Positions 32,116-61,689 of a DNA stretch of 64,000 nt are shown here, piece after piece; positions within the stretch are counted from its first letter, which is position 1; the number at the start of each line of letters is the position of its first letter. This DNA is from a virus (taxonomy: Duplodnaviria > Caudoviricetes). The notes below the pieces were generated by a model that saw only the letters and a list, made by a program, of their open reading frames with translations, was not told where the DNA came from and did not search any database. Where the stretch lies: the IMG/VR virus record IMGVR_UViG_3300012983_000001, positions 144,434 to 208,433 of that record; one strand, 5' to 3'. The position numbers were made by a program, and so were the translations under genes.

Positions 32116-33156
32116 TTAAACATCCGATTTGTAGCTAAAACTAGCGTAAAGATTCTTTAAAAAGTATTTTTCGCTTTCTAATTTAGCCATTTCGGACAAA
32201 AAATACTGATTTCCAACAAAGCTTCTGTTAATGTTCTCAAGTGCTTCATCCAGTTGCTTTCTACAGGCTTGTATTCTATTACCTATAAAGACAGAATTAC
32301 TGTTGGCACCAAAGATATCATATAATGCTAACATCTCTTTACGCTTATTATAATAATTGTATAATGTTTTCTGCATTATTTCAATACTTTGTTGTGTATC
32401 ATATGCATCTTTTCGGTATTTTATTTCATTATTGGCGTCTTCAAAGTACTGAACCAACAAAGATGCCTTGGATTCATCAGTTGTTGTATCATCTGTTTTG
32501 TTCACGACATTTGCCAATCCAATTACTTGTTCGTTTGCTTGAAATGCATACATGTTAACAGACCTATTAACAGATATATCGGATGAAATTGCTAAATATC
32601 CTATTTGTGCCATGTTGCCGTCTGCTTCAAAGGCTTGTATTTTCTTTAGATAGTCTTCGTCTTTTTGCTTGGCATCCTCAGTGCTAATAGATGCAGTACC
32701 ATAATACAGTTCTTTAATGACTGTACTAAGAACTCTTAATCGTTTTTCTGTATCATAGATTGTACCAATAAGCTCTGGAACTAAACTACCAGTAATGGAT
32801 TGTTGATGGTATGCAATAAAACTATCAATATATTCTGTATTATTACTCTCTATTGCGCTCAACAAAGATGAGATTTCTCCATACTGATTCCAATTGCCAT
32901 TTTGAAACGTTGCGGCTAATTTGTCAATAAGTAATTTCATATTTTTGAGAACAAAGTCAATGTTTTTTAGAGACGTACTTGGTAAATTATTTTTTAAACC
33001 AATAATAGTATTACTATACGTAATTTTACCAGAATGATTAGTTTCTAAAGATTGCTTAGCGCTTTCATCACCATTATTGATGCGTTCTTTCGTGTATTGC
33101 AATGTAGGCTGATAACCTATAACCGCACCATCATCATGAAGTTGGTTAATACTCAT
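32116..33156 (-). CDS. Hypothetical helical protein between terminase and portal
   Basis: 346-aa ORF whose start overlaps the terminase stop. Confidence 0.5.
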   Translation of the reverse strand: MSINQLHDDGAVIGYQPTLQYTKERINNGDESAKQSLETNHSGKITYSNTIIGLKNNLPSTSLKNIDFVLKNMKLLIDKLAATFQNGNWNQYGEISSLLSAIESNNTEYIDSFIAYHQQSITGSLVPELIGTIYDTEKRLRVLSTVIKELYYGTASISTEDAKQKDEDYLKKIQAFEADGNMAQIGYLAISSDISVNRSVNMYAFQANEQVIGLANVVNKTDDTTTDESKASLLVQYFEDANNEIKYRKDAYDTQQSIEIMQKTLYNYYNKRKEMLALYDIFGANSNSVFIGNRIQACRKQLDEALENINRSFVGNQYFLSEMAKLESEKYFLKNLYASFSYKSDV

Positions 33157-35072
33157 TAAAACTTCCTCCTTTGATAAGCTGTGGCACGCTTATTTACGGG
33201 TTTATTATTATAATTAGTTACACCTATGATACCATAAGTACTACTTGGTACTGCATGAATAGCCTCAAACGGAAGGTCTTCAGTGTCTCCAACCAGCAAT
33301 GCACGGCTTTTAACGTCAACATCTCTATTATCAAGAGTGCCAATAAACACAGTCTTGATAGAAAATACTTTCTTTAGAAGAGCTCCGTATTTCTGCTCAA
33401 ATATCAACAAGGCAAGGTTCATAGAGTCAATAGCGTGTTCATTTTCATCAGTATATTGTGGTAAACCTGCACTACTGATAGATTTTACTCTATATTCTTC
33501 CAGTTGTTGAATCATAACCTTGTCTTTAGGGTCCAGAACAATCTTGCCTTTCTCGAATAGATTAACTGAATTGTTAACCATGAATGGCTTGAGATGTTTT
33601 TGGTCTTTCTTACGGGTATATGGGTCGGTAACTTCAATTTTTTGTGAGAACTGATAACCCACTACCTTGTCTGCTAATCCAGTTTCTGGATGTTCTTCTC
33701 CGTATTTGTGAAGCATTTCAAGCTGAACTTCGCCATAACCACGGTCAATAGCTATCCAGTCAAATTTATATTCATCGTTTAGTTCAACAATTTTATTCAT
33801 GGCATTGACATATGTAAACTCTGAACGGGCAATTTCTATACGGAACAGCATTTTAAATATCGGAACGATACGCCCTTCATGGTCTTGATGGAATCTATCA
33901 AATTCCATACATACCATATTGGTTGCTGCTGCATATTTATCCCAGTCAACACCAAGAATACGAATACATTGACCTTGAGTACGCTTAAGATATGCTTCTC
34001 TTTCTTCAGGTGTCCACTTGGTAATGTATTTATATTTAAGCCTTTCGCCTTCAGCAACGGCTTCGTAGATATATTTCTTTTGGTATACACCAAGTTCTTC
34101 TTCACCAAACTCTGCCATAACTTCTTGAACATAACGCATTTCAGATAATTCATCGCGAATATCTTCAAGATATGTTTGTAATGTGTCTGGATTCATCTTA
34201 AGAAGCTCTTTGTTAACGTTAGAAGGCGCATATATTTCTGTCCAACCATTACCTTCGCCAATAGGCTTTTCTTCGATTTGATAACCACTAAATCTATTAT
34301 TTTTAATATCGTCTTGTGTTGGAAAATACTTTTTAGACGCACCCACACACCAACGATAATACTCTTCGTGCTTACCAGATGGAGTTGAAGCACATATAAG
34401 TCTGATACGCTCAGGTGCTTCATTACGAATATTAAGGATATTTGTTACTTGATTTGAGCCTATATAGTCACATTCGTCTAAAATAATAACGTCTGCACGC
34501 TGACCACGAGTCGAGTTTGCTCCGCCAGTAGCATTGTTAGCTCCTGCTGTCAAACCAAGGATATTACTAGTTACCCCATTGATATTAAAACATATATTAT
34601 GATGAACATCTCTGGATATCAAACCTGTTAACAACGGAGAAACTTCGATTAATTGATGCAAACGCTTAAAAATCAAGTCAATTTGCGTCTCATACGGGGT
34701 TGCAATAATGATATCATACTGATTATTTGGTCCTTTATTGTATTGAGTATATGCAAACCACAAAATAAGTACGCACATATCGTCAGTTTTACCAAGACGA
34801 CGACCTAATCTTAGCACTAATTTCTTAGATTTTTTGCCTTCAGTAAGAATTGCAAACTGATAATCTCTGGCTTCCCAGTCAAGATAGACTTTTGCCCAGA
34901 GCACAGGATTATCGGTAATTATGTATTCCAAAGCTTCGTTTTTGGCCATTTTATAGGCATTCATGACATAATTGACCCGTTTATCCAGTTGATTATCTAA
35001 TGGAGTCAATAATTTAATGACTTCATCAAGCTGTTGGTCATTTAATTCCATAATCGTTTGACTTGCTGCCAT
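33156..35072 (-). CDS. terL: Terminase large subunit
   Basis: Walker A GRRLGKT, Walker B IILDE, motif III ASTP, nuclease LGVDW...IDRG...EHAIDS. Confidence 0.92.
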   Translation of the reverse strand: MAASQTIMELNDQQLDEVIKLLTPLDNQLDKRVNYVMNAYKMAKNEALEYIITDNPVLWAKVYLDWEARDYQFAILTEGKKSKKLVLRLGRRLGKTDDMCVLILWFAYTQYNKGPNNQYDIIIATPYETQIDLIFKRLHQLIEVSPLLTGLISRDVHHNICFNINGVTSNILGLTAGANNATGGANSTRGQRADVIILDECDYIGSNQVTNILNIRNEAPERIRLICASTPSGKHEEYYRWCVGASKKYFPTQDDIKNNRFSGYQIEEKPIGEGNGWTEIYAPSNVNKELLKMNPDTLQTYLEDIRDELSEMRYVQEVMAEFGEEELGVYQKKYIYEAVAEGERLKYKYITKWTPEEREAYLKRTQGQCIRILGVDWDKYAAATNMVCMEFDRFHQDHEGRIVPIFKMLFRIEIARSEFTYVNAMNKIVELNDEYKFDWIAIDRGYGEVQLEMLHKYGEEHPETGLADKVVGYQFSQKIEVTDPYTRKKDQKHLKPFMVNNSVNLFEKGKIVLDPKDKVMIQQLEEYRVKSISSAGLPQYTDENEHAIDSMNLALLIFEQKYGALLKKVFSIKTVFIGTLDNRDVDVKSRALLVGDTEDLPFEAIHAVPSSTYGIIGVTNYNNKPVNKRATAYQRRKF

Positions 35073-40466: not shown

Positions 40467-40643
40467 CTATTCCTTATTAAAGTCTACTTTAAATAGAAAC
40501 TGCTTAACCTCTTCGAACTCAAAGTTATGTACATCCCCAAGGACTTCTTTGACATGGTTATAAGCTGCAAGTAAATTTACATGATTGTCCTGAGAATATC
40601 GAAATGTCATTTCTGACACTTCTTCAAGTTCCAGATTTCTCAT
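40467..40643 (-). CDS. Small hypothetical protein (58 aa, MRNLELEEV...)
   Basis: RBS AGGAGGT; own promoter TTGCTT-17-TGnTATAAC (40696-40668); below the ORF-track cutoff. Confidence 0.65.
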   Translation of the reverse strand: MRNLELEEVSEMTFRYSQDNHVNLLAAYNHVKEVLGDVHNFEFEEVKQFLFKVDFNKE

Positions 40644-41687: not shown

Positions 41688-41751
41688 TCTCCTCTGGGGG
41701 AGACTAAATAGGCAGTTAGGCCCAGAGCGTTAGTAGAAATACTAGGTCTGC
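41688..41751 (+). ncRNA. Pistol self-cleaving ribozyme
   Basis: P1 TCTCC/GGAGA with loop TCTGGG; CTAAATAG; P2 GCAG/CTGC; pseudoknot partner CCCAGA; conserved GCGT; P3 TAGTA-GAAA-TACTA; cleavage G41746/U41747. Confidence 0.9.
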
Positions 41752-42077: not shown

Positions 42078-42163
42078 TACTACATGCAGAGTGGCATAGG
42101 GACTGTACATCCCTATGTTAATGCACTATCCCATATAGGGATACTGGTCACAAGTCCAGGTGC
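42077..42163 (+). ncRNA. Twister self-cleaving ribozyme (permuted, type P5)
   Basis: ATGCAGAGTG; closed P1 GCATAGGGA/TCCCTATGT; U/AAUGC cleavage site 42119/42120; P3 TATCCC/GGGATA; P4 CTGG-TCACAAGT-CCAG; pseudoknots CAC/GTG and AC/GT. Confidence 0.85.
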
Positions 42164-46754: not shown

Positions 46755-47168
46755 ATGTCTTACAGTATCTTTGACAAATGTCTTACCGCAGATGGTTGCA
46801 AATATTACTGCAACCAGGTGGCTAATCGTCTCGGCCTTAAGCCGTTCTTTTATTATTACGACAAGCTCAACAATCTTCAATTCCCTGGGAACTCTAATGT
46901 ACATTCATTCAAGGAGTTTCGTGAATATGAGAGCTGGAGAATTAAGTTCAACTTAACTAATCCAGCTACTATTAAGAAAGCAGGCCTTGATGAGTATGTA
47001 TTGAAGCATAAGGAGCTTGCGTTCCATTTAACAATTAAGGGTTACTCTTTCCTGTTAATGTGCAAATTCTCACAGCCTAACCATAATGAAGCTGCTTGTA
47101 CTATACAGGAAACTGTTAAACCCATTTATATAGAAGAAACTAATGGCCAGTTAAGATTAAACTTATAA
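46755..47168 (+). CDS. Hypothetical early protein
   Basis: Start moved to MSYSIF behind AAGAAAGGATGGT. Confidence 0.55.
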   Translation: MSYSIFDKCLTADGCKYYCNQVANRLGLKPFFYYYDKLNNLQFPGNSNVHSFKEFREYESWRIKFNLTNPATIKKAGLDEYVLKHKELAFHLTIKGYSFLLMCKFSQPNHNEAACTIQETVKPIYIEETNGQLRLNL

Positions 47169-47181
47169 GGAGGAACTCATT

Positions 47182-47751
47182 ATGAAGAACACAATTATCG
47201 AAGCTATGAAGAAACTCAACCAGGAACTTGTTCACCGCTGTATTGTTTATGATGCTCCAGATATTCCTGACCAGTACAATCAGTGTGCATCTCTGGATGG
47301 AGTGTACGACTGGGGATTTACTGTTGTTACCTACTGTGATGTTCTTGACCCAATCATGACTTTCTATGACTGGGAATTTCAGAGCATTGTATCCATTGAT
47401 TTGGATGATGAGACTCAGTATCACTTACGTCATGGAATGTTATCTGTCAAGCAGTCCTATATGTTTAGTGATACGGTTCAGAAGTTTGTTGTAAATCTTA
47501 CCCGCGGTGCTGCTGTTCATGAGAAAGATATCCAGGCAATTGGGTACATGCCAAACTTAGGTCTCTCTGATGATAAGAGATTCTATGCCTTAAAGGATGG
47601 ACGTATCTATTATAAGAAAGACGGGGATTCTTTAAGATTATTGAAGGATACCACAGTACTTGACTTGATTCGACAAGGCTTTGAGATTATTCAGCCAGAG
47701 AACTATGGTGCGAATATTAATATCTTGAACGATATGATATGTAGAATGTAG
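47182..47751 (+). CDS. Hypothetical early protein
   Basis: RBS TAAGGAGG, 189 aa. Confidence 0.6.
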   Translation: MKNTIIEAMKKLNQELVHRCIVYDAPDIPDQYNQCASLDGVYDWGFTVVTYCDVLDPIMTFYDWEFQSIVSIDLDDETQYHLRHGMLSVKQSYMFSDTVQKFVVNLTRGAAVHEKDIQAIGYMPNLGLSDDKRFYALKDGRIYYKKDGDSLRLLKDTTVLDLIRQGFEIIQPENYGANINILNDMICRM

Positions 47752-47813
47752 CCTTCGGCCCTGACTAAGAGGCGCGTTCTAGTCTCTGTGAGGTACTAAA
47801 CTGAACTGCGTTC

Positions 47814-47842
47814 AGTTTAGCATGTTTTAGAGGTTTTGTCAA
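47814..47842 (-). promoter_or_regulatory. sigmaA-type promoter, leftward
   Basis: TTGACA-17 bp-TAAACT with extended TG. Confidence 0.7.
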
Positions 47843-47909
47843 GACCTAAAAATAAGGTTCCCCAAGAAGAGGAACCTCTGTGTCGCTTAGCGTATCTGTC
47901 GATACGCTA

Positions 47910-47938
47910 AGTATAACACGGAAATAGAGGTTTGTCAA
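47910..47938 (-). promoter_or_regulatory. sigmaA-type promoter, leftward
   Basis: TTGACA-17 bp-TATACT with extended TG. Confidence 0.75.
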
Positions 47939-48738
47939 GTGGCACACTACAGAGTTGAGGTTGCTGTGTAAAACCCAACGGTTTAACGGAGCATAAATAT
48001 GCATGTCACTGTATACTACATCCGAGGATTTTGATATCTCTATACATAAAATCCTAGATGTCAGTGCATATATATGCATTTATGCGAACAATCAAAGGAT
48101 TAGTAGCCCCCAGATGTAAGGAATTCTCCTGGAATATATGCCTTCGGCACTGGGTTGGCGTTACGAAGTCCGTGTTGATGAGATGTAATATATAGAATAT
48201 ATTCAGTCTCTCGACGAGGGTGGCTGGCACTCTTATCATGTTTTTATCTTTTCTTGAGGAAAATGTAACATAACATGGCAGAAGCCCCGTTCACTGAATA
48301 GTATAGCTCTCATGAGGAGGATTCTTTGATTCTATTCTCATATAGCTATACTCTTATTCTATATATTTGTCTATATATATGCCTATGGTATGATACGGTT
48401 TTATATATATCATAGGCATTCTATATCTTTCTCTCTATTATTCATTATGGTTTATCCATGATGAGGTTCTTTTATTCTTATCTCTATTCATGATTATTCT
48501 TATCATGATTCTTAGAGATTTATTGCTTTAGTTTTGACAGTATTTGAGGTTTTATTCGTATCTTATCGCTTTAAATAATATACGATGCTTAAATCAAATC
48601 TGTCGGGTATGTTTCCAATTTTGTTGCAAAACCTCTAGGTAGAGCACGGACTATCGTCCGTGGGTGACTCTTTCTTTGAGGCTATTCCATGGGCATGATG
48701 AACCCATGAGATTCTAATTTATGAAAGGATGGTACGCT

Positions 48739-51700
48739 ATGATGAATGGTACTACAAACTACGAAGATTTAAAGGTTGCTGAACTTAAAGACTTATGCCG
48801 TAAGGCTGGCATTAAGGGTTATTCTAAGATGCGTAAGTCTGAACTGATTGATGCTCTTAACAATTCCAAGGAACTGAAGAAAGTCATCCACAATGAGGCT
48901 AAGGACTTTGCCCATACCGAACTGGGAAGAGACTTCAACAAGGCTGTAATGTTCTGGAAGAGAGTGAACAACTTAAAGCGTATGGAGACTGACGATTACT
49001 ATCGTATGATTGATGCGTGGAAGCTCCTGGTTGGTTTACTGGGACTGGTTGATGATGATATTAAGCACATCAACATCACTGACAACTTACAGAAGACTGC
49101 TCAGGCTATCTCCAGCATTTTCTGTGTTAATGAGGTTGATTTCAGCGCTCAGACTGATGAAGAAGCTCGTGACTATATCCTGGAAACATTGAACAGCTTC
49201 AGTTTATCCGTGTTTTCCAAGAAGCTCACTAAGGACAGCGATACAATCATTAAGATGTCCATGGAGCATATTGATTTTACCAAGGATGCTCTGATATTTG
49301 ACAGCCGTGAGGCACGCAAGTTCATCGGTGACGACGCAAAGAACCACAAAGGTGACATGCGTATTGTTGAAACTGCTGAGGATGCTATTACCCGTATGTT
49401 ACAGTCCCGCGAGAAGCCGTTGTCTTCCATCACTGTATTCATGGGACAGACATCCCAGGATGAGGTTGCCATGGCTCAGATTTTGGGCATGAAGCGTCGT
49501 GTATTCTCTGAAGGTTTCACTGATGTGGCTACTGGCAAACACTACATGTTTGCATTCCAGAATCCATCCAGCTGTAGAAAGGCTAACTTCATGTTCGTTG
49601 AAGCTAATAGCTGGGATGAAGTGTTTGCTTTATGGCTGGAAATCACTGGTCTCAAGACATGGAGCGACTTCGAGAAGGCATTCTATGATGAGAACGGCAA
49701 TGTTAACATGGCTAAGTTACTGGCTAGAGTATCTACTAGAGGTTCTAACAGTTTCTCTGTTGACAAGACCGCTCCAGACCTTGCAGATGTTATCCGTAAC
49801 TTCAGACCATACTATTGCAAGGATACCAAAACAGAGGTATTCAAGGACTACAAGACCCTTAAGGGACCAGGTCTCATGGATTTGGTAACTGGTCAGTCCC
49901 GTAAGCTTACCGATGCGGATGGTCAGGGTATTGTATCCTTCCACGCAGCGGCAATCATTGCCGCTGCTCTGTGCCGTATCTCCCGCTATGAGCTGGCTGA
50001 ATTCCAGGATGAATTCGCCAAGGCTAAGAACGATATCCACAATGTCAAGCCAGGTAGCCGTTTGGAATCTATCATCAAGAAGATTCCTGCCGCATTCCAG
50101 ATTCGCCATGGCGAAAAGAAGGGAATGCTTGTACGCTGGAACTTAGAAGCTATCGACACTACTAAGGATTACGATGTAATCATTCCAGACTCCGTCAGAA
50201 AGTTCATCGGTGGCGAATGGTCTGACTATCCGTTAGAGGTATGTAACTTCCTTAAGCCAAAGGGAGACTGGGCATACCTTAATCCGCAGTTCATCAGTGC
50301 ATTAGGCTGGGAAGACCCTAATGCGTTAATTCCTATCGCTAATTACTGGGCTGAATACGAAAGAGAATCCATTGTCAACATGGCAAAGGCTCAGCAGTTC
50401 CACGGCATCATCAAGAGTGTTGATGATGAGGACAACAAGACCAATGCTGGTCATCTCAATGCCGCATTGCGTGTATCCCCAGACTTACTGGATGATTTCC
50501 AGATTCTGAAATGGCGTAAGGAACAGTACAACACATTCAATTCCAACATGACTATCGGCAGAATGATGGTTAGAGGTCAGTATACCTATATGATATTCGA
50601 CCCTGCATACCAGATTAACAAGTACTTCAACCTTGAGCTTCCTTGTCTGGCAAGTGGTGAGTTCTATCACAACGGTAAGGAGTGTAATGCCGCTTTATTC
50701 CGTAGTCCGCTGATTGCTCCGTATGAGGCTAAGAAGGTTACTCTTGTGAACAACGAAGAGTATAAGTATCTTGCTGATACCGTAATCTTTAATGGCTTTG
50801 ATGGTGCCGCAGACGATATGGGAGGCGGCGACCATGACGGGGACACCTGTGAAATTGTAACCGATGACAATTTCTTTGGTAAGATTATCGTTGATGGTGT
50901 GCGTGACATTCCGTATGTTGTATGGGAGAAAGGTCAGGATGCTCAGAAGGTTAAGTTCTCTGTAGCTACACTCATTGAACATCTCACCAATACTGCCGTA
51001 CAGTCCAGAGTTGGCGTTATCACCAACTATGCTACCTGTGCTATGGATATTGCTAATCATCTTGTAGCATCTGTACACTTTGCAAAGAGACTAGGTTGTC
51101 AGTCTATAACCATGCTTCATCCACGCTCCTTTGGCAAGGGCTTAGGCTGGAATTACATTCCAAACAAACAGCCAGATGGCAATAGTGGATACACTTTCTT
51201 GATGAAAGGCTATGTTGAATGCCAGCTTACACGCCAGGGATACAACAAGCATTACACTGATATTAAGTCTCAGAGATTCCATGTGCGTAATGTTGAGCCA
51301 TGCGATGTAATCTTCAGCAATGAGGGTAATATCATCGGCACATATACATTCGAGCAAGTTGAGGATATTGCAAAGTATTTCTTAGGTCTTGTAGAGATTT
51401 TAAGAATCTTACAGGGCAGAGAGATTGACGGTGCAAAGACTGGCGTCTATGCTGAGGGTGTTTCTGGTAAAGATTTCATCGAAGCTGTTAAGGTTGTATT
51501 TGCACCGAAGCACTTACTGACCAGACAGGATACTCTGGAAAGAAGTATCTCCACTGCCGCTATGCTGAATCAGTATACTTCCTTATCTCCTTTGGGTAGA
51601 TTACATGATTACTCTGTTAAGGTTACCGAGGATATCACCGACAAGCTGGCAAATGGTTCCAATAAGATTTTCTTGCTTCAGTCTTTATTGAGCGAGGAAG

Positions 51701-53354: not shown

Positions 53355-53427
53355 GAGGACGCACGCCTAACGGCGTGCTAGTGGTTAAAGAACCATCCTT
53401 TCTTGCCAAGGGCTTCATCACCCCTAC

Positions 53428-53460
53428 GGGCTGGGCTTACGCCCAGCCCTTTGTTTTTTT
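53428..53460 (+). terminator. Rho-independent terminator
   Basis: GGGCTGGGC-TTAC-GCCCAGCCC followed by TTTGTTTTTTT. Confidence 0.85.
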
Positions 53461-59193: not shown

Positions 59194-59222
59194 TTGACAT
59201 TTCATGTTACATTTTATATAAT
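59194..59222 (+). promoter_or_regulatory. Consensus sigmaA promoter
   Basis: TTGACA-17-TATAAT. Confidence 0.8.
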
Positions 59223-61594: not shown

Positions 61595-61689
61595 CGGAAG
61601 GTAGCTCAGAGGCCAGAGCTTCTTGCCTTAGAACGGGTAACTGCAAGTGATAACACCGTTGGTCGCGAGTTCGAATCTCGCCCTTCCGA
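61595..61689 (+). ncRNA. tRNA-like RNA 1 (anticodon arm replaced by a ~40-nt pseudoknot)
   Basis: Acceptor CGGAAGG/CCTTCCG, D arm GCTC/GAGC, T arm GCGAG-TTCGAAT-CTCGC; no canonical anticodon arm. Confidence 0.75.

Follow-up and report, generated by a model that had tools for sequence, protein, structure and literature searches.

What does a phage keep in a kilobase of DNA that holds no open reading frame and lies directly 5' of an RNA polymerase gene? The question is raised by a stretch of 64,000 nucleotides, here called the window, which comes from a ~208-kb phage that is 0305phi8-36-like. Its ORF-free region has several parts and runs from 47752 to 48738; the end is probably at 48738, since gene callers place the start of the polymerase at 48739. 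An earlier note had described most of this gap as a strand-specific array of hairpins, and had offered four roles for it: a non-coding RNA or 5' leader controlling the polymerase, a partner RNA of that enzyme, a replication origin, or an injection-stop signal like that of phage T5. The first of these roles is the best supported. With a probability of roughly 0.55, we propose that the block is a composite control region heading the polymerase operon, and that it contains a new structured 5' leader RNA predicted to control polymerase expression. The arguments for a leader are sequence conservation, compensatory changes, a G-U bias on the plus strand, constant linkage to the polymerase gene, and an antisense partner for hairpin H and the SD.

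Table 1. Features in and around the gap upstream of the polymerase gene, and the partner element downstream of it (window coordinates).
Feature	Position	Strand	Description
Module 1	47796..47842	-	sigma-A promoter and perfect 11-bp palindrome
Predicted intrinsic terminator	47845..47878	-	GAGGTTCC..GGAACCTT, then ATTTTT
Module 2	47885..47938	-	sigma-A promoter and perfect 11-bp palindrome
Block A	47950..47995	+	hairpin, stem 47961-47966 / 47976-47981
Long variable hairpin	47991..48085	+	conserved tip GGAUUUUGAUAU
Domain 1	48091..48179	+	branched, 8 helices, 28 pairs; best conserved part of the element
Hairpin GAGAUG..CAGUCUC and stem-loop	48180..48234	+	encloses an AU hairpin; followed by the conserved stem-loop GACGAGGGU.GCUGG
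U-rich strand	48235..48271	+	pairs with the A-run of block C, AAAAUGUAACAU (48260-48271)
U-rich zone	48272..48470	+	poorly alignable; T 46%, A 24%
Helix E	48480..48519	+	AUCUCUA 48480-48486 pairs with UAGAGAU 48513-48519
Long hairpin F	48533..48607	+	conserved UUUAAAUAAUAUAC and UUUCAAAU.UGUCRGG
Hairpin G	48645..48662	+	CACGGAC-UAUC-GUCCGUG, invariant core GACUAUCGUC
Hairpin H	48687..48710	+	stem 48688-48693 / 48703-48708, loop CAUGAUGAA, consensus AGUGAUGAN
SD region and probable start codon	48723..48741	+	SD region GAAAGGAUGGU 48723-48733, probable start codon at 48739; 1279-aa YonO-like polymerase
Partner element	53392..53425	+	3' end of the polymerase operon; anti-SD ACCAUCCUUUC and hairpin AGGG[CUUCAUCAC]CCCU

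The polymerase, P0001, starts at 48739 and is a YonO-like two-barrel RNA polymerase of 1279 amino acids, with a match to PF05183 (E = 5.6e-20), an N-terminal Rho_N domain, and a catalytic DxDGD motif whose residues D698, D700, G701 and D702 are invariant in 16 relatives. It is 27% identical to ORF099 of phage 0305phi8-36, the only relative in INPHARED, and a scan of GTDB genomes yielded a single distant YonO-like gene, from Thermoanaerobacterium. In every relative with upstream sequence, the polymerase gene is preceded by a gap of 0.6-1.4 kb that is poor in ORFs. The gap of the window holds an element of ~720 nt with many hairpins (47947-48668), which nhmmer recovers at full length in 14 distinct loci, with two more cut by contig ends; its core is found in four distant loci. 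Other neighbours vary, but the element invariably accompanies the polymerase gene, and no match to it was found away from such a gene. The core DNA pattern AGGATTAGTAG..AAGTCCGT run over IMG/VR gave nine extra loci, L015-L023, all of them chance matches in two unrelated coding sequences; exact 18-20-mers led only to L001 and L002, both already found.

Folding was compared with dinucleotide-preserving shuffles on both strands. The minimum free energy (MFE) of the 969-nt block is -314.6 kcal/mol on the plus strand, against -238.6 +/- 8.4 for shuffles (z = -9.05), and the minus strand reaches z = -9.76: both are clearly better than shuffled sequence, control stretches of 969 nt giving z = -1.47 in the polymerase coding sequence and -3.34 in the upstream genes. 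The plus-strand MFE lies 30 kcal/mol below that of the minus strand, and the single-sequence z-scores do not tell the two strands apart. All seven hairpins that had been named are where they were said to be. The inverted repeats at 47796-47820 and 47885-47912 are each perfect over 11 bp, and the hairpins at 47991-48085, 48296-48359, 48379-48419, 48441-48465 and 48533-48607 are seen in the MFE fold and the repeat lists.

As judged from sequence comparison, the left edge of the gap (47796-47940) is made of one or two modules, in each of which a plus-strand palindrome resembling a terminator is fused to a strong minus-strand sigma-A promoter. Promoters were recognized by TTGACA and TATAAT-like hexamers 17 +/- 1 nt apart that are kept while the spacer varies, and both modules have this form. 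In module 1, the -35 hexamer TTGACA (47842-47837) is separated by 17 nt from the -10 hexamer TAAACT (47819-47814), itself inside the perfect 11-bp palindrome 47796-47820; read on the plus strand, this palindrome and CATGTTTTAG resemble an intrinsic terminator, predicted to end the upstream operon. In module 2, TTGACA (47938-47933) and a 17-nt spacer precede TGT and the -10 hexamer TATACT (47915-47910), and the palindrome 47886-47896 / 47901-47911 covers the end of the -10 and the predicted start site. The minus-strand terminator between the two modules would stop the transcript of module 2 at roughly 55-60 nt. The common form, TTGACA-17-TAnACT on the minus strand, agrees with the sigma-70 consensus at 11/12 and 10/12 positions, with a TG 5' of the -10 in both modules, and these are the only promoter-plus-palindrome units in 208 kb. 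Most relatives keep the modules, as TTGACA-17 followed by TATACT, TAAACT or TATGCT, with unrelated spacers and palindromes of varying sequence; none was found in relatives L009 and L013. On the plus strand from the modules to block A, the search for a promoter gave an AT-rich word like a -10 without a -35, which is not convincing. The earlier note had missed the promoter modules that contain its first two hairpins.

The element to the right of the modules opens with block A, whose hairpin has a near-invariant loop UGCUGUGUAAA and 3' flank GGUUUAACGGAGC; across homologues, 92.9% of the cells of its helix are paired, with 17 G-U. We take the word GGUUUAAC in block A to resemble the boxA of rrn and lambda. 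The long variable hairpin that follows is missing from L011, L013 and L031, and is replaced in L010 by an ORF with weak HNH similarity (below the Pfam cut-off) and in L012 by an extra promoter module. The motif GACGAGGGT..CTGG, in the segment 48180-48234, is retained even in the distant group of relatives. The stems formed by the U-rich strand and block C differ from relative to relative; a terminator after domain 1 was considered and rejected, the U-tract being better read as part of the next hairpin, whose 5' strand it would form and whose stems vary. Block C reads as a start-stop mini-ORF, AUG-UAA or AUG-UAG, in all relatives, with no conserved SD. The U-rich zone has hairpins at 48296-48359 and 48441-48465, as well as the conserved hairpin D at 48379-48419, where 9/14 pairs show double changes. 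The 3' side of helix E falls within the most widely conserved block, AUGGUUCUUAGAGAUU. In hairpin G, 96.3% of the cells are paired and 4/6 pairs show double changes; directly 3' of it, eight relatives have an SD and an ORF of ~100-130 amino acids. The small ORFs that adjoin the element in relatives gave weak matches only (membrane-like, HTH, and HNH below the Pfam cut-off). Blocks B, E and F occur once each in the 208-kb genome, which rules them out as recurrent promoter motifs; AAAATGTAACAT occurs three times. No terminator or ribozyme was found between the element and the downstream ORFs, and neither a terminator nor a gene break lies between the element and the polymerase SD.

Is this structure conserved as RNA? 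Conservation and covariation upstream of homologous polymerases, which the earlier note had suggested as a check, are both found. Domain 1, present in a single copy in the genome, scores 127-166 bits in 13 phages and falls to 15-26 bits in distant relatives; few blocks are therefore universal. Its nucleotide identity is 68-92%, compared with 59-72% for the polymerase gene. In its alignment 96.4% of the cells are paired, and double changes affect 18/28 pairs against 9.7 +/- 1.7 in shuffles, of which 0/500 attain the observed values. The covariation score is 0.489, while slid partners score 0.03-0.11, or 4-16 times lower. Hairpins D, G and H covary as well, whereas for helix E, hairpin F and the U-rich zone the signal is at best weak. 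Compensatory changes in independent sequences are thus above controls.

Selection on one strand is indicated by RNAalifold, which gives -92.4 for the plus strand and -68.7 for the minus strand of 14 homologues, and by a G-U bias: the non-Watson-Crick cells of conserved helices read on the plus strand comprise 99 G-U and 13 A-C, and pairs predicted on both strands comprise 27 G-U and 8 A-C, an excess that is expected in part from the G+T-rich composition. Twelve homologues keep a strong skew of T over A (T 42-50%, A 21-29%). The claim of strand-specificity thus stands for the MFE difference, the G-U bias, the RNAalifold energies and the skew; it does not extend to the z-scores, nor to the two leftmost hairpins, which are not strand-specific because they are perfect palindromes within minus-strand promoter modules. 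Sequence comparison shows most of the block (47947-48710) to be conserved as an RNA structure of several domains, read in the direction of the polymerase gene, on the plus strand.

Hairpin H carries an invariant GUGAUGA loop on at least 12 different stems. It lies just 5' of the polymerase SD, and is so placed in the twelve tabulated relatives showing it; this placement, and the small-ORF SD directly after hairpin G in eight relatives, favour a leader over a separate gene. The operon carries at its 3' end a conserved hairpin and an anti-SD that complement hairpin H and the SD: the loop of the partner hairpin is complementary to that of hairpin H, and a plus-strand terminator follows at ~53426-53460. 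The combination of anti-SD, loop CUCAUCA and terminator is present in the window and is clear in 8/12 relatives examined; L014 and L037 have weaker candidates, L011 and L036 have none. The position flanking the loops forms the pair A:U in the window and in L009, G:C in L001 and C:G in L010; the SD and the anti-SD have changed together in L009 and L010. The predicted energies of cognate duplexes are -24 to -36 kcal/mol; in 9/11 of them z lies at -1.9 to -5.3, and the duplex of the window reaches -36.0 kcal/mol (z = -5.0). The predicted complementarity, loop to loop and across the SD, is kept across relatives.

These observations suggest the following mechanism. The RNA would be the 5' leader of the polymerase mRNA, and the amount and timing of the YonO-like polymerase would be set at the RNA level. 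The loop of hairpin H would kiss the loop of its partner, pairing would then extend across the SD, and translation would be shut; the partner may be a small RNA derived from the 3' UTR, or the transcript itself may supply it from its 3' end. The extensive upstream part, made of block A, domain 1 and hairpins D-G, may bind a phage or host factor, or may gate read-through and stability by their folding. The modules would halt transcription coming from the upstream host-takeover operon and fire the host polymerase back against that operon, which would insulate the leader.

There are other ways to read the block. The ~720-nt RNA may be a free-standing ncRNA acting in trans, maybe released by processing, that serves the polymerase as cofactor, scaffold, decoy or template; its place before the gene, constant despite varied neighbours, would then reflect co-inheritance and not regulation in cis. 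The size, branched architecture and conserved unpaired loops are closer to large phage ncRNAs than to typical leaders, and the junction of block A with domain 1 tolerates the insertion of a weak-HNH ORF or a promoter module, as do the peripheral loops of stable RNAs. Matches to pistol and twister predict that self-cleaving ribozymes already cut transcripts of the upstream operon of this phage, and phage SPbeta has an unannotated ncRNA at the start of its late operon, where YonO begins transcription (PMC5467207). However, no terminator or ribozyme parts the RNA from the downstream ORFs, and the element is in single copy, with no match away from the polymerase gene; we consider a free ncRNA possible but unlikely. 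A bolder proposal is unlikely: the RNA would represent a new class of large structured phage RNA acting with an RdRP-like polymerase, the kiss between H and its partner looping the operon transcript. Such an RNA could assist the enzyme as a cofactor of specificity or assembly, act as a decoy, or even serve RNA-templated synthesis as template or primer; the eukaryotic relatives of this polymerase copy RNA. As for the idea that palindromes and folds are the functionless by-product of an AT-rich, low-complexity spacer, the central zone is AT-rich and TATATA-type words pair easily. However, z = -9 holds even against dinucleotide-preserving shuffles, the blocks are conserved above their coding neighbour, and compensatory changes go far beyond controls: this explanation is effectively refuted.

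A different family of explanations places the signal in the DNA. The block, or at least its left third, would mark the inner boundary of a long terminal repeat, as a terminase cutting or recognition site, a T5-like injection stop or a transcription-activated origin, and the hairpins would be DNA palindromes. In 0305phi8-36, the gap of ~775 nt that precedes ORF100 and the polymerase contains one end of a 6479-bp terminal repeat. The seven genes of this repeat have the orientation of the polymerase gene, and at its far boundary the strand switches, beside the virion and terminase genes. The gene order of the window is the same: the terminase gene (33156-35072, minus strand, 47% identity), a strand switch at ~41 kb, ~6.5 kb of plus-strand genes, the gap, the polymerase, and a PF06908 gene. 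At least one relative, 0305phi8-36, thus has a function of the DNA itself at this place, its syntenic gap holding the boundary of a terminal repeat as well as repeated 20-nt motifs. The iss of T5, too, lies within a terminal repeat and is large, untranslated and rich in palindromes (bioRxiv 10.1101/866236), and perfect palindromes and strong promoters are features of DNA. In the window, the palindrome-rich untranslated region is present, and its position in a terminal repeat is suggested only by synteny with 0305phi8-36; the record does not give the physical ends of the phage because its 123-bp end repeat is an assembly overlap. Contig ends proved uninformative as evidence for physical termini, L024 beginning with a Nextera adapter and L039 in non-homologous sequence. 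Against a DNA-level signal, there is no DnaA box TTATCCACA at up to one mismatch in 47752-48720, window-wide counts being at chance level, and hence no ordered array of such boxes as in T5; the position, which matches the gap where the terminal repeat of 0305phi8-36 ends, is a better argument for an injection stop than the earlier note could know. Beyond hairpin H, no similarity to the gap of 0305phi8-36 is apparent, the GC skew turns at ~40 kb, not at the gap, and duplex DNA is not expected to extrude branched helices that keep G-U pairs and bulges and show compensatory changes. The role of replication origin has no specific support: an AT-rich zone is present, but there are no DnaA boxes and no iteron or other repeat family common to relatives, and the conserved blocks are unique in the genome. 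We regard a DNA-level signal as improbable, slightly more so than a free ncRNA, and retain the structured leader as the preferred reading.

Conserved structure is rare in bacterial and phage RNAs of more than 500 nt, and every such RNA has been a source of new biology. The present one has no Rfam counterpart, and selection on the nucleotides of its domain 1 is stronger than on the adjoining polymerase gene. It is linked to a poorly understood single-chain RNA polymerase, similar to RNAi polymerases, whose owners are widespread, uncultured ~200-kb phages of gut and rumen. The complementarity between the 5' hairpin with its SD and the 3' hairpin with its anti-SD points to a directly testable feedback circuit, and synteny with the terminal-repeat boundary of 0305phi8-36 leads to a prediction on the genome end and on the first DNA to enter the cell.

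How does the element compare with known systems? Rfam 15 gave no match over 47000-49500 at E <= 1; over 47940-48740 at E <= 10 it gave only sau-19 (21.5 of 80 bits) and PK-repZ (16.3 of 44 bits), both far below threshold, so that nothing reaches the gathering threshold of GOLLD, ROOL, phage pRNA, group I and II introns, riboswitches or ribozymes. The same scan recovers the pistol and twister ribozymes elsewhere in the window. The text of a catalogue of viral structured-RNA candidates names none near RdRP-like genes (PMC10690425). GOLLD and ROOL also span several hundred nucleotides, have many helices backed by covariation, and occur in phages and prophages with tRNA clusters; their function was unknown when they were first described. 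Unlike them, the present element, which matches neither model, is fixed directly 5' of one gene and continuous with its SD, and is limited to one clade of ~200-kb gut and rumen phages.

Translation can be controlled by antisense RNAs through kissing loops, as in the CopA/CopT system of plasmid R1, and small RNAs can derive from 3' UTRs. The predicted circuit shares with the CopA/CopT type a 5'-UTR hairpin loop complementary to the loop of a second RNA, an adjoining anti-SD stretch, and a partner that ends in a terminator. It differs in that the predicted partner lies in cis: it is encoded on the strand of its target, ~4.7 kb further downstream where the operon ends, and not antisense to that target.

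With the T5 iss, the block shares the character of a large untranslated region rich in repeats, inverted repeats and palindromes, placed after the first early-gene block; the array of eight DnaA boxes typical of iss is missing here, and the conservation is RNA-like. The gap before the polymerase gene ORF099 of 0305phi8-36 is alike in gene order, in its ~775 gene-free nucleotides and in a hairpin with a GUGAUGA loop before the polymerase SD. It differs by about six copies of a 20-nt motif, AGTATCGCACACGTTATGTC, and by having neither sigma-A promoter modules nor a detectable domain 1; the 20-nt motifs are probably the 21-bp candidates for phage-specific promoters of Hardies et al. (PMC2147016). 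Finally, in SPbeta too an ncRNA stands at the head of an operon tied to a YonO-type polymerase (PMC5467207). Compared by description only, the two arrangements differ in order: the SPbeta ncRNA heads the late operon that YonO transcribes, downstream of yonO, whereas here the RNA precedes the polymerase gene itself.

The window covers the last 64 kb of a virus record of 208,433 bp; the 123-bp repeat at the ends of the record results from assembly overlap. Virion and terminase genes fill positions 1-40 kb on the minus strand, the terminase (33156-35072) sharing 47% identity with gp117 of Bacillus phage 0305phi8-36, and plus-strand genes start at about 41 kb. The gene downstream of the structured block encodes a polymerase with N-terminal Rho_N/SAP followed by PF05183, the eukaryotic-type RdRP family of which SPbeta YonO is a member. 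Its relatives fall into about 73 clusters, most of them on ~200-213-kb contigs of gut and rumen metagenomes; the DxDGD motif is unchanged across 16 relatives, and the sole cultured relative detected is ORF099 of 0305phi8-36 (27% identity).

Features of the polymerase locus and its surroundings (window positions)
Feature	Position	Strand	Description
Pistol ribozyme; type-P5 twister ribozyme	41688-41751; 42085-42159		both above Rfam gathering scores; in plus-strand operon upstream of structured block
189-aa ORF	47182-47751		upstream neighbour of structured block
Two promoter/palindrome modules	47796-47940	promoters on minus	TTGACA, 17 nt, TAAACT or TGT-TATACT
Structured element	47947-48668	plus	block A, variable hairpin, domain 1, further hairpins, U-rich zone, helix E, hairpins F and G
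Hairpin H	48687-48710	plus	at least 12 different stems carry the loop (A/C)GUGAUGA(N)
Polymerase ORF, 1285/1279 aa	start 48721 or 48739, end 52578		downstream neighbour of structured block
Partner element	53392-53425	plus	ACCAUCCUUUC..AGGG[CUUCAUCAC]CCCU; between gene after polymerase and terminator

A perfect TTGACA followed by a 17-nt spacer marks three plus-strand promoters of the window, at 40549, 59194 and 63605, the last two of which also have a perfect TATAAT; the first, located where the strand switches, could drive transcription of the operon containing the ribozymes. The 12-mer AAAATGTAACAT of block C occurs three times in the genome (48260-48271, 59203-59214 on the minus strand, and genome position 63312), where a rough composition-based estimate predicts ~0.1 copies; one copy lies inside the spacer of the sigma-A promoter at 59194. 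A cluster of eight tRNAs includes, at 61595-61689, a 95-nt ARAGORN prediction whose type is left undetermined and whose anticodon has four bases (ttag), scoring 45 bits with the Rfam tRNA model; it could be a suppressor, frameshift or intron-bearing tRNA.

All the hairpins listed in the earlier note are present in the block, and its structure is far above chance, since on the plus strand 969 nt fold at -314.6 kcal/mol (z = -9.05 against shuffles), while two control stretches of equal length give z = -1.47 and -3.34. That the structure is specific to one strand, as also claimed, does not follow from these scores: the minus strand is equally extreme (-284.7 kcal/mol, z = -9.76), and a single-sequence z is no discriminator. 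The plus strand is favoured instead by RNAalifold on 14 sequences (-92.4 kcal/mol versus -68.7) and by the G-U bias: G-U outnumbers A-C by 27 to 8 among pairs predicted on both strands, and by 99 to 13 in conserved helices. A skew towards T is kept as well, the zone between blocks C and F having 42-50% T and 21-29% A in all 12 relatives tested. Part of the G-U excess is due to composition, but conserved wobble pairs, such as a U-G pair of domain 1 retained in 12 of 13 sequences, are not so explained. Judged by these comparisons, the selected strand is the coding strand of the polymerase.

An ORF-poor gap of 0.6-1.4 kb lies 5' of the polymerase in all relatives with upstream DNA. A profile search with the gap retrieves 14 distinct full-length copies, two truncated by contig ends, and the core alone in four distant phages. 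The structured element occurs once in the 208-kb genome; matches remote from polymerase genes were rejected as chance matches within coding DNA. The alignments alternate near-identical blocks with variable hairpins. Block A is a hairpin with an invariant loop, domain 1 is branched, hairpin D sits inside the U-rich zone, and hairpin F is long. Nucleotide identity in domain 1 is 68-92%, versus 59-72% for the adjacent polymerase gene; 96.4% of its cells are paired, 18 of its 28 pairs show two-sided changes, against 9.7 +/- 1.7 in shuffles, and controls with slid partners score 4-16 times lower. With a covariance model of this domain, 13 phages score 127-166 bits and the distant group only 15-26 bits.

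Several relatives differ locally. The variable hairpin that separates block A from domain 1 gives way in L010 to a 124-aa ORF (1643-2017) weakly similar to HNH endonucleases (E = 0.0023, short of Pfam's cut-off), which suggests that this interval tolerates insertions. In L009 (1574-1858) and L013 (1983-2264), a ~93-aa gene lies directly 5' of block A, in the usual place of the promoter modules, which were not found in either; the L013 copy has a putative Crp-like helix-turn-helix. A small GCCUUCGGC-type hairpin (47751-47763) immediately follows the stop codon of the upstream gene, and also starts the gap in L003, L008, L011, L012, L014, L027, L030 and L033. The public metagenome contig of L024 starts with the Nextera adapter TCGTCGGCAGCGTCAGATGTGTATAAGAGACAG (1-37), so this end is an artefact.

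The simplest account would be that the element is a structured 5' leader controlling synthesis of the phage polymerase, because no terminator or ribozyme lies between it and the ORFs downstream, in eight relatives hairpin G is directly followed by a small ORF's SD, and hairpin H adjoins the polymerase SD, 15-35 nt 5' of the start codon. A similar hairpin precedes the polymerase gene of 0305phi8-36.

The partner element, found through the loop word of hairpin H, is complementary at two places: ACCAUCCUUUC complements the polymerase SD exactly, and the hairpin loop CUUCAUCAC complements that of hairpin H. Among 12 relatives examined, this arrangement of anti-SD, CUCAUCA-loop hairpin and terminator 3' of the polymerase operon is clear in eight, has weaker candidates in L014 and L037, and is absent in L011 and L036. 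Three observations support the pairing as real: the loop-flanking positions of the two hairpins pair as A:U, G:C, A:U and C:G in the window, L001, L009 and L010; L009 and L010 combine GGUGAUU by the start codon with AAUCACC in the partner; and cognate duplexes have energies of -24 to -36 kcal/mol (-36.0 in the window, at z = -5.0), with z from -1.9 to -5.3 in nine of 11 pairs. Read from sequence, this is the layout of antisense control by kissing loops that also occludes the SD, in which the partner would be either a small RNA derived from the 3' UTR or another part of the same transcript. A factor may bind the ~600 nt 5' of hairpin H, to judge from their conserved loops and junctions.

In both modules a perfect 11-bp palindrome overlaps the promoter -10; a minus-strand intrinsic terminator comes next, downstream of module 2, and the first palindrome, read on the plus strand, resembles a terminator ending the upstream operon. 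Such units occur nowhere else in the 208-kb genome, and most relatives have them, with palindrome and spacer sequences that differ. They extend to the distant group, in which a module adjoins the reduced core; L012 has an additional one between block A and domain 1. The modules would terminate the upstream operon and aim the host polymerase back at it, leaving the leader insulated.

The block could instead serve mainly as a signal in the DNA, and the layout of 0305phi8-36 speaks for this: its right terminal repeat (6479 bp), at the genome end argued to enter the cell first (Hardies et al., PMC2147016), stops within the ~775-nt gap 5' of ORF100 and the polymerase, comprises seven genes facing the polymerase, and has its other boundary at a strand switch by virion genes. 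The window has a matching layout, so the plus-strand genes between about 41 and 47.8 kb may form a terminal repeat whose inner boundary is the left edge of the structured block. The T5 injection-stop region, likewise untranslated and palindrome-rich, lies within a terminal repeat. Against the T5-like injection stop or origin proposed earlier, 47752-48720 has no DnaA boxes with up to one mismatch, no iterons are common to relatives, and the conservation pattern is that of an RNA; a DNA signal is thus unlikely to be the main function. For the palindrome/promoter modules, a DNA-level role is a live possibility.

The gap 5' of ORF099 in 0305phi8-36 (L041, 3690-4200) is filled by a 20-nt motif (AGTATCGCACACGTTATGTC and variants) repeated directly about six times, which probably corresponds to the 21-bp candidates for phage-specific promoters published by Hardies et al. 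in 2007 (PMC2147016); the word TTATGGTTCGTCGT lies on either side of its terminal-repeat boundary. No Rfam family, named motif or paper was found to match the element of the window, fragments of which may be contained in a large automated catalogue of viral structured-RNA candidates. The element is best filed, on its predicted features, as a new structured phage leader RNA family with an unusual long-range antisense pairing between 5' and 3' ends.
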